DNA of 63,343 bases, counting the filler, from Bacteroidales bacterium (GTDB lineage: Bacteria; Bacteroidota; Bacteroidia; Bacteroidales; CAIWKO01), in NCBI GenBank assembly GCA_035389045.1. It is 9 parts of 9 records of this genome, joined end to end, with 100 filler letters (N's around TTAATTAATTAA, not from the genome) between each part and the next. Parts side by side here need not be neighbours in the genome. Positions count along the whole stretch, not along the records: positions 32,781 to 40,610 come from DAOORA010000111.1; 8 more parts are not named here. The stretch is one strand, 5' to 3'. A program made the position numbers. Positions 33,001 through 39,000 of this stretch are shown here, piece by piece. Numbering within the stretch: the first letter of the stretch is position 1; every line of letters starts with the position of its first letter.

Positions 33001-36000
33001 CTTGTGTTGTTGGTGGTTCGTGCTGCCACCCTGAAAAAAAGTGTCAGGGTGACTGCTAATCGCCGGGTATCAGCGCGCCGAAGGCGCTCCTATGGAGAAG
33101 TCACCCCGACACTACCAAATAATACCAAATTGAAATATCAATTAGTCCAATGGGGCGTATTGATATTTCTTATTTGGTTATACCGATGATAAAAATAAAT
33201 AGTACAAACGAGTGAAGCGAAGTTTGGACTATATTATTTTTCAAATCGGTATAATCAATTCAATTTTTATCGTTGAACGAATTTACGTAAATTCATTCAA
33301 TAGATTGAACGTATTAATGTAAAAATATTCATCAAAATGATCAAATTAATGGAAAATTGTTTATTTTTGTAAAAAATTTCATAAGATGATTATTCAGCGG
33401 CCCATTCAGAAAAAAATTGAAGGAAAACTAAAATCAGGCAAGGTCTTACTATTGCTTGGCGCTAGGCGGACCGGAAAAACATTTCTGATAAAGCAGATAA
33501 TTAAAAGCCTTAATACACACAGGCTGTTGTTAAATGGAGAAGATTTTCAGGTGGCTGCAAAACTGGAAAACAAAAGTATTTCTGAGTACAAACAAATTGT
33601 TGGGAAAAACAAACTGTTAATCATTGATGAGGCTCAGAAAATTAAAGATATCGGGAGGATACTAAAAATTATGATTGATGAGATTGATGGTTTGACGATA
33701 ATGGCAACAGGCTCATCAGTATTTGATCTTTCGCAGAAACTTGGGGAGCCTTTGACGGGCAGGAATATTAATTTTAAAGTTTTCCCAATAGCACAATATG
33801 AGCTGAAGGATTTAGAGAATCCCATTGAAACCCAATCAAATCTGGAGCAGCGGCTTATTTTGGGTTCCTACCCTGAATTGTTCTCCATGTCGGGATATGC
33901 AGAAAAGCAGGAATACCTGATCGGGCTTGTAAATTCTTTTTTGCTGAAAGATATTTTAGAATTGGACAACATAAAAAACGCATCAAAAATTCTAAATATA
34001 TTACGGTTACTGGCCTTTCAGGTAGGCAGTGAGGTGTCTTTTTCTGAGATTGGGCAAAAAGTGGCATTAAGCAGAAATACAGTGGAACGATATATTGACT
34101 TGCTTGAAAAAACGTTTATAATATTCTGCTTAGGTGGCTTTAGCAAAAACTTGAGAAAAGAGGTTTCAAAAAACTCGAAATACTATTTTTGGGATAACGG
34201 TATAAGAAATGCGGTCATTTCGAATTTTAACCCATTGAGTTTAAGGAATGACGTTGGGCAATTATGGGAAAACTATATTATTTCAGAAAGATTGAAATAT
34301 CTGGCTTATCAGACGAAACCGGCCAATGTGTTTTTTTGGAGGACTTATGATCAGCAGGAAATTGATTGGGTAGAGGAAAGAGCCGGAAAGCTGTTTGCAT
34401 TTGAAATAAAATATATCAAAAACAAAGTCAAAATTCCTGAAGCCTGGAAAGAAGCTTATCCCGAATCGGAATTTTCTGTAATTAGTAAGGAAAATTATTT
34501 AGATTTTATTACCTGATAATCACCATAGCGTTTTGCCAAATCTTGCATAATAATGAAAATCAATTTTCCCCTTCAGGCCGAGGCAAAAAATTATGCCAGT
34601 AGCGGTATGACTGAGCGCTGACTTGTTCCGTTTGCAGTTCGTGCTGCCACTAAACCCCCATACCGTCACTCACCATCGCTTCAGAAATATTTTGACCCCG
34701 AATCTCTGATAAAACAATTTAAATAAGTATTTTTGACCGCCCAATAACAATTAATATATTATGAAAGAAAATTTCGATCCTAAGTATAACTACGAAGAAA
34801 CTAAGGAAACTATTGGATATGTGCCACTGAAGAAGGCCACACAGGATGATTGGACCCGTATAGGTTTTATGTCCGGTCTGGAGGTTCACCAGCAGCTCAA
34901 AACCAAAGAAAAACTCTTTTGTCATTGCCCTGCAGGTCTATATCAGAAAAAAAATCAATATGATGCCGAACTTTTGAGGCATATGCGTCCGACACTGAGC
35001 GAATTGGGCGAGTATGACGGCACCGCGCTCATGGAGTTCAAAACACGCAAGGAAATTGTATACCGCATCAAGAACGAAACCGCATGTACCTACGATGTGG
35101 ATGATACGCCGCCCTTTAAACTGAATAAAGAAGCGCTGGAATATGCACTGGAAATAGCGCTGTTATGCAAACTTAATATCGTTGGCGAAGTACATATTAC
35201 CAGGAAGCAATACCTCGACGGAAGCATACCTACCGGATTCCAGAGAACCGCGATTCTCGGGGTGGAAGGTGAATTGTCGCTGAAAAACAAGAAAGTAAGA
35301 TTGATACAGTTAAGTATTGAAGAAGATTCATGCCGCGAAATTTCGGATATCGGCCACCGGCGTGTTTATTCCACCGACCGGCTGGGCGTGCCTCTGATAG
35401 AAACAGTCACCTATCCCGATATGATCAATCCTTACGAAGTAAAAGAAGCCTGTGATTCTATCCGTTTTCTAAACCGAAGCACCGGGAAGGTCAGAACCGG
35501 CATCGGCGCCGGGCGACAGGATGTAAATGTGAGTTGCAAAGGTGGAACACGTGTGGAAATAAAAGGTGTCGCTCATACCCGGTGGATACCCAAACTCACT
35601 CATAATGAGTCGTTCCGCCAGTGGTCCTTGTTGCATATCCGAGGAATATTGAACGAAAAAATGGGCGACGGCTCATCCTGGAAAATGAACTTTAGGGAGC
35701 TGGAACTTAGAGATTTTCGTTTCTCTAACCTCCCGCTGACCGACGAAAAAAAGAATGTATATAAATACTATGCCATTAACCTTCCGGGATTTAAAAAGAT
35801 ACTTTCGCACTTTACCCAGCCCGGTAAAATGTTTGCTGATGAAATCAGCGAAAGACTGAAAGTGATCGCCTGTATTGAAACACCCAACATGACACATTCG
35901 GAAGAGTTTGTTCCCCTGGTCAGTGAAGATGATTTCTCGAACATCAGAAACCTGCTTAGCGCAAAAGATACGGATGCCCAGGTCATCATCTGGGGACCTG

Positions 36001-39000
36001 AAGCAGACATGAAAACAGCCCTGGAAACAGTGGAAGAGCGATGTCTGTGGGCGTTTAAGGGAGTTCCCAACGAAACACGTAAATCATTTGAAGACGGAAC
36101 AACAATTTTTGAACGTGTATTGCCGGGAGCAGACCGTATGTATCCTGATACGGATTCTGTGCCTATACCCTTATATGATGATTATATCCTCCACTTGAAA
36201 AAAGGCTTGCCTACGGAGGTTATCACACGTTATCTCCAATTGAAAACATGGGATATTCCGGAAGATACGTATACTTATATTTTAAAGAAAAACCTGTTCC
36301 CCATTATTGACCAGATAGTCGAGAAATACGGATATGATCCCAAACGTGTCGGAACCTTTATCGGACATACGCTGAAACATACCGAAGGCCAACATGAAGT
36401 ATCACCTTATTTTGATTATGACATGATCCGTGAGATGTTCGGTTTTATTAAGGAAAAGAAGCTCGAATTTCCCATTGCCAAGCAGATGCTGCCTGTATTA
36501 ATGATGCACCCCAAAATGGATTTTGATTCTATTTTAGCCACGATAAAATTTAAAAAGATCAACAAGGAGGAAATACTTGCCAACATTCCGTTTATGAAAG
36601 AAAAATTCCGCCAGATACGTATTTCCGAAAAGCCGGATGTGGAAATAAACTGGATCATGGGCGGCTTGCGGAAGATGGCGACAGGAAATATGAACCTCAC
36701 TGAATTAAAAAAATTAGTCGAAACAAGTAATTAATAGTTAAATATCATAACAACATGAGTGAAGATTTTTTTCAGGGATATAAAGGCGCGGCTCTTGAAA
36801 TATTGAAAAAATATAATGTACGGGTTTGGGGTCAGGCAGAAGTGGATACTACACGCGGGCAATTCAAGGGAACCGTGTTGCCTCGCGCCGAAAATGATGA
36901 CGACCAGCATATTGTCCTGAAGGTGGTCACGGGATATAACATAGGTGTTGATATAGCAACCATTCTTTCAATGAAGGAACTGGGCTATAAAAAAGCAAAT
37001 TATAAAATTCCTGAAAAAGAATTTCCCTATACGCCCGGACTACCAAAAGTAAAACTGATCGGCACCGGAGGCACTATCGCCTCGAGGCTTGATTATCGTA
37101 CCGGAGCCGTTATTCCGGCTTTTTCTCCCGGTGAATTATACGGAGCGGTTCCCGAACTTGCTGAGATTTGCAACCTGGAAACCGAAAAACTTTTTGCGGT
37201 TTTCAGTGAAAATATGGGCCCGGAGCAGTATAAAAAACTTGCCGTAGCGATAGGTCAGGAAATTGAAAAAGGTACCGACGGCATTATTATAGGCCATGGA
37301 ACGGATACCTTGCATTATACAGCTGCTGCTTTGACATTTATGGTTCAGAATCCTCCGATACCCATCGTACTTGTTGGCTCCCAAAGATCATCTGACCGGC
37401 CCAGCTCTGATGCCGCTTTGAATCTTATGCATGCAGCCACAGCTGCCGCACATGGCGATATTGCTGAAGTGATGGTATGTATGTTTGGGCCCACCTCCGA
37501 TGAATACGGTTTTTTGCATCGGGGAACCCGCGTCAGAAAAATGCATTCATCGTATCGTTCTACTTTTCGAACCCTTGGCGATATTCCCGTGGCTACCGTT
37601 ACCCGTAAAGGCGTGTTCCCGCAAAAACCAGTGTATAATCATCGCCGCCGGGACCCGGCAAATGTAAAAATAACACCTGTTTTTGAAGAAAAAGTGGGTA
37701 TGCTGTATTACTATACCAACATGCAGCCGGATATGATAGATGCCATGGTCGACAACGGTTATAAAGGTATTATTATTATTGGTACCGGACTCGGACATGT
37801 GAACAAGCCAATTTATCCGGCAATAGAAAGGGCTGTCAAAAAAGGAGTGGCAATATATATGACCGTACAGACGTTGTGGGGCTTTGTCCACATGTTCGTC
37901 TATGATACCGGTCGCGACCTGATGGCTAAAGGAATTATCCCGGCAGAAAATATGCTTCCCGAAGTGGCTTATATAAAACTGGGATGGGCCTTAGGGCAGA
38001 CCAGCGACCTGGAAAAAGTTAAAGAAATAATGCTGACACCAATAAATGATGATATCACAAAACGTGAACCCTATAACGGATACCTCATTTATCAGGGAGG
38101 GGTGAGAGAAGTCGAGGACTTCATTAAAAAGGTACACAAATAAGAACTCGTATTGGCTTGCCGGCATAAAAAAATATCTCTTTACGCCTCTGCGTCTCTG
38201 CGAGATAATAAACATATCTCTTTGCGCCTTTGCGTCTTAGCGAGAAAAAATAAACATATCTCTTTGCGTTGCGTCTCTGCGAGAAAAATCTCTTTGCGCC
38301 TTTTATGAATGTGACAGCTTCATTTTACCTGAACAACGGATAACCGGTATTTTTGGCGTTTTCAGATGTACTCGTCCCCTTTTTCTATTTTTACATCATT
38401 AACAAACTGCCGGATCTGTTGTTCGTCATTTTTACGGCATATCAACAACACGTTTCCCGACTCAACCACAATATGGTCATCCAGTCCTTGTAAGACAACG
38501 AGTTTGTTCTCCGGCATGTTCACAATGCAGTTGTGGCTGTCATACATAATAACATTTTTTCCGACTATGGCATTTCCCTTTTCATCTTTTTGCCTGTTTT
38601 CATATAAGGAGCCCCAGGTGCCCAGGTCGGACCATCCGAAATCGGAACGCAGGACATACACATTATCTGCTTTTTCCATGATGCCATAGTCAATGGAGAT
38701 GCTTCTGCAAGTGGTATACACCTGCTGTATAAATTCCGGTTCCTTATCCGTATTATATATACCCCTGCCTTTTTCAAAGGACTCTTTGATCTCCGGCAGG
38801 TGTTTTTCGAATGCCTGTAAGATACTTGATACCGACCAGATGAAAATTCCCGAATTCCATAAAAAATCACCACTTTCAAGAAATTGTTTGGCCATTTCGA
38901 GCACTGGCTTTTCCGTAAATGTCTTGACTTTTTTTATCCGTAAATCATCAGGATAGGTGTCAGTGTCTTTATATTGTATGTATCCGTAACCGGTGTCAGG

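Follow-up and report, generated by a model that had tools for sequence, protein, structure and literature searches.

Reviews up to 2022 treat the amidotransferase GatDE as exclusive to archaea and as an 'archaeal signature protein', in agreement with the initial annotation of the locus described here. Co-evolution of GatDE with a tRNAGln carrying an A1-U72 pair is held in these reviews to explain why archaea never acquired GlnRS, and the presence of GatDE in LUCA is debated. That archaeal GatDE recognizes A1-U72 is stated in PMC2330236, where archaeal GatD is also described as lacking activity unless Glu-tRNAGln is present. GatCAB, on the other hand, recognizes U1-A72, the pair found here (PMC2330236; PMC2811023). 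A motif in the GatE tail (GXXAXGX, in a YqeY-like domain) is reported to discriminate Glu-tRNAGln from Asp-tRNAAsn via the D-loop (PMC2811023), and no activity of GatDE on Asp-tRNAAsn is known (PMC2330236). GatCAB itself persists beside GlnRS and AsnRS in Deinococcus, Thermus and Bdellovibrio (PMC4206432). A Bacteroidales bacterium that possesses GlnRS and keeps an intact, strongly conserved GatDE shows the archaea-only distribution to be wrong.

The gatE-gatD locus and its host genome

The window, that is the whole stretch of DNA analyzed (63,343 nucleotides), is a chain of short contigs with N spacers between them, all from one metagenome-assembled genome (MAG; 4.46 Mb, 135 contigs, 96.3% complete). 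Both genes are carried by a contig of 7,830 bases (window positions 32781-40610).

34761-36734, + strand: gatE, kinase/amidotransferase subunit, 657 aa
36735-36754, + strand: gatE-gatD spacer, 20 bases
36755-38143, + strand: gatD, asparaginase-type glutaminase subunit with GatD_N domain, 462 aa
41450-41523, + strand: tRNAGln(CUG), candidate substrate, on a separate contig of the same MAG

For both genes an ORF was found at exactly the coordinates first given, and ORFs and family scores bear out two adjacent, full-length genes, as initially annotated. The arrangement looks like an operon. Of 74 loci in which gatD is preceded by an ORF, 65 have gatE immediately before it in the same orientation. 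Because the tRNAGln(CUG) gene belongs to a different contig, its closeness to gatDE in the window is meaningless. No conserved partner, tRNA or synthetase was found in the neighborhood of the orthologous loci.

That the genes lie on a short contig (7.8 kb), one of 135 in the MAG, is what would be expected if an archaeal contig had been misbinned into a bacterial genome. Against this, the adjoining genes are ordinary bacterial ones, and base composition and codon usage agree with the genome: the GC content of gatE (0.432) and gatD (0.449) is close to the overall value of 0.410, as noted previously, and the two genes show codon-usage correlations with the genome of 0.82 and 0.84 (genome median 0.818). 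Moreover, the protein groups in a bacterial clade rather than with archaeal sequences, and GatD orthologues (77-95% identity) occur in isolate genomes as well as in Bacteroidales chromosomes that are closed, at 4.1-4.9 Mb. Archaeal misbinning is thus refuted for practical purposes, contamination being excluded by orthologues in closed bacterial chromosomes, in cultured genera and across the order, where an even sample of 201 genomes gave 90 carriers.

Domain architecture and catalytic residues of the two subunits

GatD contains the Pfam domains GatD_N, Asparaginase and Asparaginase_C, all three above cut-off, and scores 495.7 bits against TIGR02153 gatD_arch (cut-off 324), 493.5 bits against NF003217 (cut-off 310) and 376 bits against the type I asparaginase family TIGR00519. 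For GatE, scores were 161.9 bits against Pfam GatB_N, 396.6 bits against NCBIfam TIGR00134 gatE_arch, above the cut-off of 319.55, and 452.7 bits against NF003107, slightly below its cut-off of 456. The best solved relatives of both subunits are those of M. thermautotrophicus (2d6f) and P. abyssi (1zq1), with E values of 1e-77 to 1e-116.

Catalytic residues turned out to be invariant in both subunits, their roles being taken from PMC2330236. GatE residues H43, E187 and E214 align with His15, Glu157 and Glu184, the Mg2+-binding residues of M. thermautotrophicus GatE (PMC2330236); they are unchanged in 50/50 aligned GatE sequences and present in all Bacteroidota orthologues covering them (66-67 of 69, the other rows being truncated there). 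Likewise, 78/78 GatD orthologues share unchanged motifs for the nucleophile Thr and the Thr-Lys-Asp triad, at residues 103-110 (nucleophile Thr), 181-185 (Thr-Asp) and 260-266 (Lys).

In GatE, the catalytic domain is of the cradle type and is accompanied by an AspRS-like insertion, a helical domain and a tail that has diverged. An AF2 model (pLDDT 89.3) gave 1zq1_C and 2d6f_C/D as top Foldseek matches, with a TM score of 0.82. The insertion, which has no counterpart in GatB, is present: a GatB_N profile of 277 positions is stretched over residues 38-476, the alignment to 2d6f_C and 1zq1_C runs unbroken across this stretch, and the stretch is confidently modeled, superposes on both solved GatE structures and gives weak extra AspRS matches. 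The helical C-terminal part is predicted with a pLDDT of 75-94.

Divergence is found towards the tRNA-reading end of the protein. The tail scores 20.8 bits against PF02637, below the cut-off of 27, and residues 500-657 are conserved among Bacteroidota while differing from archaeal and other bacterial GatE. In the Bacteroidota subclade the basic residues and the second Gly of the tail motif are replaced, whereas non-Bacteroidota members of the bacterial clade retain an archaeal-like motif, which fits an ancestral Glu-tRNAGln function. The positive loop near the first tRNA base pair is also altered relative to archaeal GatE.

Distribution, selection and the charging context

GatD exceeded the cut-off in 90 of the 201 genomes drawn evenly from the order, closed chromosomes included, with a patchy distribution that differs even inside a genus. 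GatDE orthologues also occur in cultured Marinifilum, Labilibaculum and Ancylomarina. The initial annotation had placed the genes in Bacteroidales, where they are indeed present, but this scope proved too narrow: bacterial GatDE proteins form one clade (support 100/100) that spans several phyla, including Calditrichia, KSB1, Latescibacteria, Aminicenantes and others. Its nearest labeled archaeal relative is a Heimdallarchaeota sequence, and an AU test did not separate a position within the archaea from one as sister to them (p 0.51). The stem leading to the Bacteroidota GatE subclade is long (0.63).

Both genes are under purifying selection, with a median dN/dS (NG86) of 0.062 for gatE (15 unsaturated pairs) and 0.031 for gatD (26 unsaturated pairs). 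Identity to GatD is 77-95% across 77 orthologues, as against about 60% for GluRS across the same order, and synonymous sites are saturated between these orthologues. No stop codons were seen among the 90 GatD matches above cut-off. Genome-like codon usage and saturated synonymous sites mark gatDE as long resident in this genome. RNA-library contigs from two metatranscriptome studies, at least 99% alike, cover gatE and gatD and nearly omit the upstream ATPase gene, which a DNA run covers evenly; bacterial GatDE is thus apparently transcribed.

Profile searches of the 96.3% complete MAG agree with the initial annotation on the charging enzymes. GlnRS (760.6 bits), a single GluRS (488.6 bits) and AsnRS (611.3 bits) are present, a 586-aa class II cross-match in the AsnRS search is probably AspRS, and there are six Asn_synthase genes. 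Genome-wide searches returned neither GatA nor GatC, and the single GatB_N match was GatE itself, leaving no GatB. A proposed GlnRS/YqeY fusion was not borne out, as GlnRS is 566 aa long and Pfam gives only a catalytic and two anticodon-binding domains.

Among the 90 GatD-positive genomes of the order, 85 also have GlnRS, a count from two profile-search lists matched by hand, as do 10/10 further GatDE-bearing genomes. GlnRS thus accompanies GatDE almost always, and GatDE is therefore never visibly needed. GatB was found in only 5/80 genomes of the order; GlnRS, a true GatB and GatDE occur together in five genomes of other classes.

As initially reported, both tRNAGln genes of the genome carry U1-A72, so that the A1-U72 pair read by the archaeal enzyme is absent. 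tRNAGln(CUG) combines U1-A72 with A73, a D-loop of 8 bases and a variable loop of 5 bases, and U1-A72 recurs in sets of 19 aligned and 22 listed tRNAGln. No co-variation with GatDE was seen for tRNAGln or tRNAGlu, and the loop and tail motifs of GatE do not change with the D-loop type of tRNAGln. In T. thermophilus GluRS, the substitution R358Q makes the enzyme non-discriminating (PMC2978374). The corresponding Arg is kept in 38/38 genomes, with or without GatDE, a marker with no non-discriminating positive control within the order.

Possible function beside GlnRS and relation to known systems

Our main reading, to which we give a probability of about 0.5, is that gatE and gatD encode an active Glu-tRNAGln amidotransferase that works beside GlnRS and has long resided in bacteria. 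The genes are intact, catalytic residues and fold are conserved, purifying selection is strong, the bacterial distribution is wide and old, and the genes are present in RNA libraries. We infer that GatD and GatE form the alpha2beta2 complex of a GatDE system, and we likewise infer activity, tRNA identity and physiological role. By homology, GatD would release ammonia from Gln or Asn, while GatE would bind the acceptor end of the aminoacyl-tRNA, phosphorylate the side-chain carboxylate with ATP/Mg2+ and then amidate it. The substrate would most likely be Glu-tRNAGln bearing the bacterial U1-A72 pair, and the enzyme might serve as a conditional second route or convert Glu-tRNAGln mistakenly made by GluRS. 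Of the ancient, maintained second route initially proposed, the old and maintained GatDE beside GlnRS, with no GatCAB found in the 96.3% complete MAG, stands; the supply of Glu-tRNAGln is doubtful, since the sole GluRS retains the discriminating-type Arg.

That Arg, the U1-A72 pair, the changed tail motif, the lack of any GatE change with D-loop type, the near-constant company of GlnRS and the additional GatB in five genomes all speak against this main reading. All of them except the U1-A72 pair, together with the long stem to the Bacteroidota subclade, its own version of residues 500-657 and selection exceeding that expected of a rarely used proofreader, favor a re-targeted enzyme that keeps its chemistry and acts, at least in this subclade, on a different aminoacyl-tRNA or in a role beyond Gln-tRNAGln supply. 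Such a repurposing, already raised by the initial annotation, remains live as the main rival, possible although in our view rather doubtful: nothing points to another substrate, the neighborhood offers no partner, the six Asn_synthase genes and AsnRS make Asn supply independent of GatDE, neither the catalytic pocket nor the overall fold has changed, and the Arg marker has the calibration limit given above.

GatD might be mainly a free asparaginase/glutaminase of nitrogen metabolism, with GatE regulatory or vestigial, as its type I asparaginase score and its far better conservation (median identity 80% vs 64.5% for GatE) could suggest. This is improbable given the strong selection on GatE, its invariant kinase site, the gene order and pairing retained across loci, the ordinary asparaginase also present in many genomes (second matches of about 210-240 bits) and the dependence of archaeal GatD on Glu-tRNAGln (PMC2330236). 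Even less probable is a functionless leftover, under loss since GlnRS took over: the patchy spread would agree with it, but dN/dS values of 0.03-0.06, reading frames free of stops, invariant catalytic residues, presence in RNA libraries and high GatD identity despite saturated synonymous sites would not.

More speculatively, and with less confidence than we give to re-targeting, bacterial GatDE may be an old third bacterial amidotransferase lineage, either of the same age as the archaeal lineage or passed from an Asgard-like archaeon to an early member of the Bacteroidota-Calditrichota-Latescibacterota group. It might have been kept after the arrival of GlnRS for a task beyond GlnRS, be it an Asn- or ammonia-driven, glutamine-independent route to Gln-tRNAGln under particular conditions, or another aminoacyl-tRNA following remodeling of the D-loop-reading tail. 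An age equal to that of archaeal GatDE, if true, would support GatDE in LUCA.

Gene presence is not new, since annotation pipelines already name GatD and GatE; what is new is the recognition of a coherent bacterial GatDE lineage and the puzzle of its function, and the literature collection searched returned no paper on bacterial GatDE. A large, strongly selected and apparently transcribed bacterial clade removes the archaea-only premise and provides a natural experiment in which the same enzyme meets U1-A72 tRNAGln and a bacterial GluRS, beside GlnRS and sometimes GatCAB. With cultured carriers at hand (Marinifilum, Labilibaculum, Ancylomarina), activity, tRNA specificity and role are directly testable.

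The locus shares with archaeal GatDE (2D6F, 1ZQ1) the two adjacent genes, the GatD_N and asparaginase domains with Thr, Thr-Asp and Lys motifs, the GatB/E cradle with its His/Glu/Glu Mg site, the AspRS-like insertion and the helical C-terminal part. It differs in that GatE is only about 30-39% identical and falls in a separate bacterial clade, with the first-base-pair loop and tail motif altered, and in its host, a bacterium with U1-A72 tRNAGln, a bacterial-type GluRS and GlnRS, whereas in archaea, which have no GlnRS, GatDE is the sole route to Gln-tRNAGln. The overall reaction is shared with bacterial GatCAB, whose GatB subunit is a paralogue of GatE; after the solved GatE structures, the GatE model is best matched by GatB chains (TM 0.53-0.73). 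Unlike GatB, however, GatE has neither GatA nor GatC as a partner, its glutaminase is of the asparaginase type, and it has the insertion domain but neither the 3-10 turn nor the Lys-rich tail motif of GatB (PMC2811023). Deinococcus, Thermus and Bdellovibrio are alike in keeping a tRNA-dependent amidotransferase despite a direct synthetase. Such retained GatCAB is usually accounted for by asparagine supply through a non-discriminating AspRS. In contrast, the enzyme retained here is GatDE, in a genome that has both Asn synthase genes and AsnRS.

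The gatE-gatD pair and its products

The window strings together nine short contigs of the MAG (about 5.7-8.3 kb each) by paired N spacers, so that adjacency across the spacers is meaningless. The gatE-gatD pair lies on a contig of 7,830 bases (window 32781-40610), where open reading frames were found at exactly the positions given by the initial annotation, separated by a gap of 20 bases:

34761-36734, + strand, gatE, ORF of 657 aa
36755-38143, + strand, gatD, ORF of 462 aa

The identities proposed there for both products are borne out by the family models. GatE matches Pfam GatB_N (161.9 bits) and exceeds the cut-off of NCBIfam TIGR00134 (396.6 bits; cut-off 319.55), while scoring slightly below that of a second model, NF003107 (452.7 bits; cut-off 456). 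GatD contains the Pfam domains GatD_N, Asparaginase and Asparaginase_C and reaches 495.7 bits against TIGR02153 (cut-off 324). For both proteins, the closest solved structures are those of crystallised archaeal GatDE, 2d6f and 1zq1. The surrounding genes encode an AAA_14/DUF4143 ATPase (window 33386-34516, upstream of gatE), a ManC-like nucleotidyltransferase and a SprT-like protein. On the adjacent contig, a 197-aa ORF (window 31975-32568) has a weak match to an IS200-like Y1 transposase (22.7 bits; cut-off 23). Promoter and terminator scans yielded nothing beyond chance (11 vs. 9.7 and 2 vs. 4.6, respectively).

Residues H43, E187 and E214 of GatE align with His15, Glu157 and Glu184, described as the Mg site of Methanothermobacter thermautotrophicus GatE (PMC2330236), and are identical in 50/50 diverse GatE sequences and in every Bacteroidota orthologue covering them. 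Likewise, the nucleophile-Thr, Thr-Asp and Lys motifs of GatD are unchanged in 78/78 sequences. An AlphaFold2 model of GatE (pLDDT 89.3, pTM 0.87) has the two solved GatE structures as its top structural matches (TM 0.82), with GatB chains ranking below. Orthologues are 77-95% identical for GatD (n = 77) and 53-84% for GatE (n = 68); for comparison, identity across the order reaches only about 60% for GluRS, which is essential. Synonymous sites are saturated in most pairs. In pairs with dS under 1.5, median dN/dS (Nei-Gojobori) is 0.062 in the case of gatE (15 pairs) and 0.031 in that of gatD (26 pairs). The pair thus very probably encodes an active amidotransferase of the GatDE type.

In two metatranscriptome runs from two studies, contigs matching at 99% or more cover both gat genes and the two genes downstream. 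The upstream ATPase gene is nearly uncovered by these contigs and evenly covered by a DNA run, although contigs of this kind cannot reveal RNA levels, transcript starts or a single transcript and the upstream coverage gap is a mere hint. The RNA-library contigs are accordingly taken as a hint of gatDE transcription, not as proof.

A bacterial GatDE clade

In this organism, GatDE is a genuine bacterial enzyme of long standing that is under strong selection. A scan with one genome per species returned 540 GatD relatives, the best 80 of which are 77-95% identical and belong to MAGs of Bacteroidales and Lentimicrobiaceae, some of them closed chromosomes of 4.1-4.9 Mb; Marinifilum, Labilibaculum and Ancylomarina are cultured carriers among these best 80. 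The relatives' loci are flanked by ordinary bacterial genes (LptA/OstA-like, NUDIX, amidase_3, MlaD, SLT), which are not conserved. The sole conserved neighbour of gatD is gatE, located directly upstream in 65 of the 74 loci in which an ORF precedes gatD; no other family recurs in more than 13 of the 80 loci, and no tRNAGln gene was seen near them. Both genes match the genome in GC content (0.432 for gatE and 0.449 for gatD vs. 0.410 for the genome) and in codon-usage correlation (0.82 and 0.84 vs. a genome median of 0.818). Together with the relatives' loci, these values speak against an artefact of binning.

Three loci labelled Cloacimonadales (L038), Eubacteriales (L042) and Chlorobiota (L074) carry a GatD 78-80% identical to that of the window, and the GatE proteins of L042 and L074 are placed within the Bacteroidota subclade, the branch holding the window's GatE. 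These loci represent either mislabelled bins or recent transfers. An intact gatD ORF could not be called in L038 or in two further loci, L043 and L055.

When 1.84 billion cluster representatives were searched, 594 proteins were retrieved at E-values up to 1e-30. A FastTree phylogeny of 109 full-length representatives and 11 named loci consists of two groups, each with a support of 100. Bacteroidota GatE is nested, on a long stem (0.63), within a 43-row group in which all organism labels are bacterial (CSSED10-310, Deltaproteobacteria). A profile built from this group gave nine labelled matches among the 120 matches listed, namely Calditrichia, KSB1, Clostridiales, Krumholzibacteria, Latescibacteria, Aminicenantes (twice), Desulfaltia and 'bacterium'. 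Labels in the second group are solely archaeal (Heimdallarchaeota, Thorarchaeota, Hodarchaeales, Thermoprotei, Parvarchaeota).

A quick IQ-TREE topology was discarded because of its poor search, and a careful tree (LG+G4, 85 rows, rooted on three bacterial GatB) with an AU test was used instead. Here, the bacterial GatE clade has a support of 100/100 and is joined with a Heimdallarchaeota sequence at 99/95; in none of the 200 bootstrap trees are the archaeal rows gathered into a single clan. The best tree in which the archaeal rows were constrained together is nevertheless 1.5 log-likelihood units better. With an AU test p of 0.51 and an outgroup branch of about 2 changes per site, the data fit either a bacterial clade nested in Asgard-like archaea or one that is sister to all archaea.

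GatDE beside GlnRS

The MAG comprises 4.46 Mb on 135 contigs (96.3% complete, 1.65% contamination). A search of this 96.3% complete genome detected GlnRS, one GluRS and AsnRS, and neither GatA nor GatC; its sole GatB_N match is GatE itself. In this respect, and in the U1-A72 pair seen in both tRNAGln genes (each with A73), the genome agrees with the initial annotation. The GlnRS/YqeY fusion reported there is not supported, GlnRS being an ordinary 566-aa enzyme in which a YqeY domain was not found. The control genomes of B. thetaiotaomicron and E. coli also lack GatA, GatB and GatC. A tRNA-Sec gene with anticodon TCA is present on genome contig C4 (37479-37571), which makes selenocysteine decoding by the organism probable.

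Even sampling of about 148 families of the order gave 201 genomes, of which 90 score over the cut-off for GatD and 191 for GlnRS; both occur together in 85 of the 90 GatD-positive genomes (crossed by hand). GatB exceeded its cut-off in 5/80 genomes of the order. Across the phylum, GatD was over the cut-off in 8/151 genomes, 7 of the 8 being from other classes. Five of these seven (99-100% complete) were examined, and every one, G252 and G295 (loci L092, L093) among them, encodes GlnRS, a true GatB and GatE. In G252, glnS and gatD are convergent, tail to tail, 2 bases apart. Five more GatDE carriers, reached via their loci, have GlnRS, and GatB was not found in them. In one genome of the order, G064, GatD is present and neither a GlnRS fragment nor GatB was found; its congener G196 has GlnRS without detected GatD. 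Since all three systems are missing from the search results for G067, a genome rated 100% complete, false negatives do occur, and G064 cannot be claimed to rely on GatDE as the sole route.

Candidate substrates and tRNA partners

Our best single reading, to which we assign a probability of about 0.5, is that the substrate is Glu-tRNAGln and that the enzyme acts beside GlnRS. Its main rival, which we regard as possible and clearly less probable, is an enzyme re-targeted to another aminoacyl-tRNA or role. Retention of GatDE for asparagine supply was dropped as an explanation: the MAG has six Asn_synthase-domain genes (603-676 aa; contigs C95, C19, C9, C78, C89 and C27), which make a tRNA route to asparagine unnecessary.

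The canonical GatDE function requires Glu-tRNAGln, and the specificity of GluRS therefore bears on the role of the enzyme. The single GluRS has an Arg at the position of T. thermophilus R358 (counted by hand), where R358Q is described as rendering the enzyme non-discriminating (PMC2978374). The same Arg occurs in 38/38 genomes of the order, whether they carry GatDE or not, the order offering no non-discriminating positive control; being invariant, this marker cannot separate the two groups and was dropped as a GatDE-linked trait.

Nor did any tRNA co-evolution with GatDE withstand scrutiny, as judged from tRNAGln type and the tRNAGlu first pair. The tRNAGln(CUG) gene of the window is:

41450-41523, + strand, tRNAGln(CUG) of the MAG

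By BLAST, the window's tRNAGln has matches in 13/15 GatD-positive vs. 2/15 GatD-negative genomes. Two tRNAGln architectures exist in the order, type X (8-base D-loop, 5-base variable loop) and type Y (7 and 4 bases); in alignment A2 and loci L146-L175, genome G026 is intermediate, U1-A72 is present in all and A73 in nearly all. After addition of 75 more genomes, type X was counted in 34/47 GatD-positive vs. 22/58 GatD-negative genomes (crossed by hand), a count in which related genomes are not independent, unassembled tRNAs score as misses and 75 other high-quality genomes are not included. The link had thus faded and become loose, and was dropped as evidence. Matching of GatE to tRNAGln type was also rejected, the 25 type X genomes sharing their loop and tail motifs with the 11 type Y genomes (5/40 regions yielded no GatE ORF). 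The G1.U72 wobble at the first acceptor pair of tRNAGlu was found in 14/14 GatD-positive and 14/14 GatD-negative genomes (loci L256-L285) and dismissed as an order-wide trait; it also occurs in the window's own MAG (contigs C4 and C15). In six related genomes (L094, L099-L103), glnS is followed after 77-165 bases by tRNAGln(CUG), encoded in the same direction; this link is not visible here, as glnS is at a contig end in this MAG.

Comparison of 67 Bacteroidota, 31 other bacterial and 46 archaeal GatE sequences revealed catalytic motifs common to all three sets. The positively charged loop beside the first base pair differs between archaeal and bacterial forms. A tail motif tied to telling Glu-tRNAGln from Asp-tRNAAsn (PMC2811023) is retained in other bacterial GatE; the Bacteroidota subclade lacks its basic residues and second Gly. 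The C-terminal region (500-657) of this subclade is conserved inside it and differs from that of all other GatE.

Annotation pipelines already name gatD and gatE, and the novelty therefore lies in the biology and evolutionary meaning rather than in gene presence. No description of a bacterial GatDE was found in the literature searched, and passages in reviews assert the opposite, that GatDE is confined to archaea. Archaeal GatDE is described (PMC2330236, among others) as reading A1-U72 and the D-loop of its tRNA, whereas the tRNAGln of the window instead carries U1-A72.
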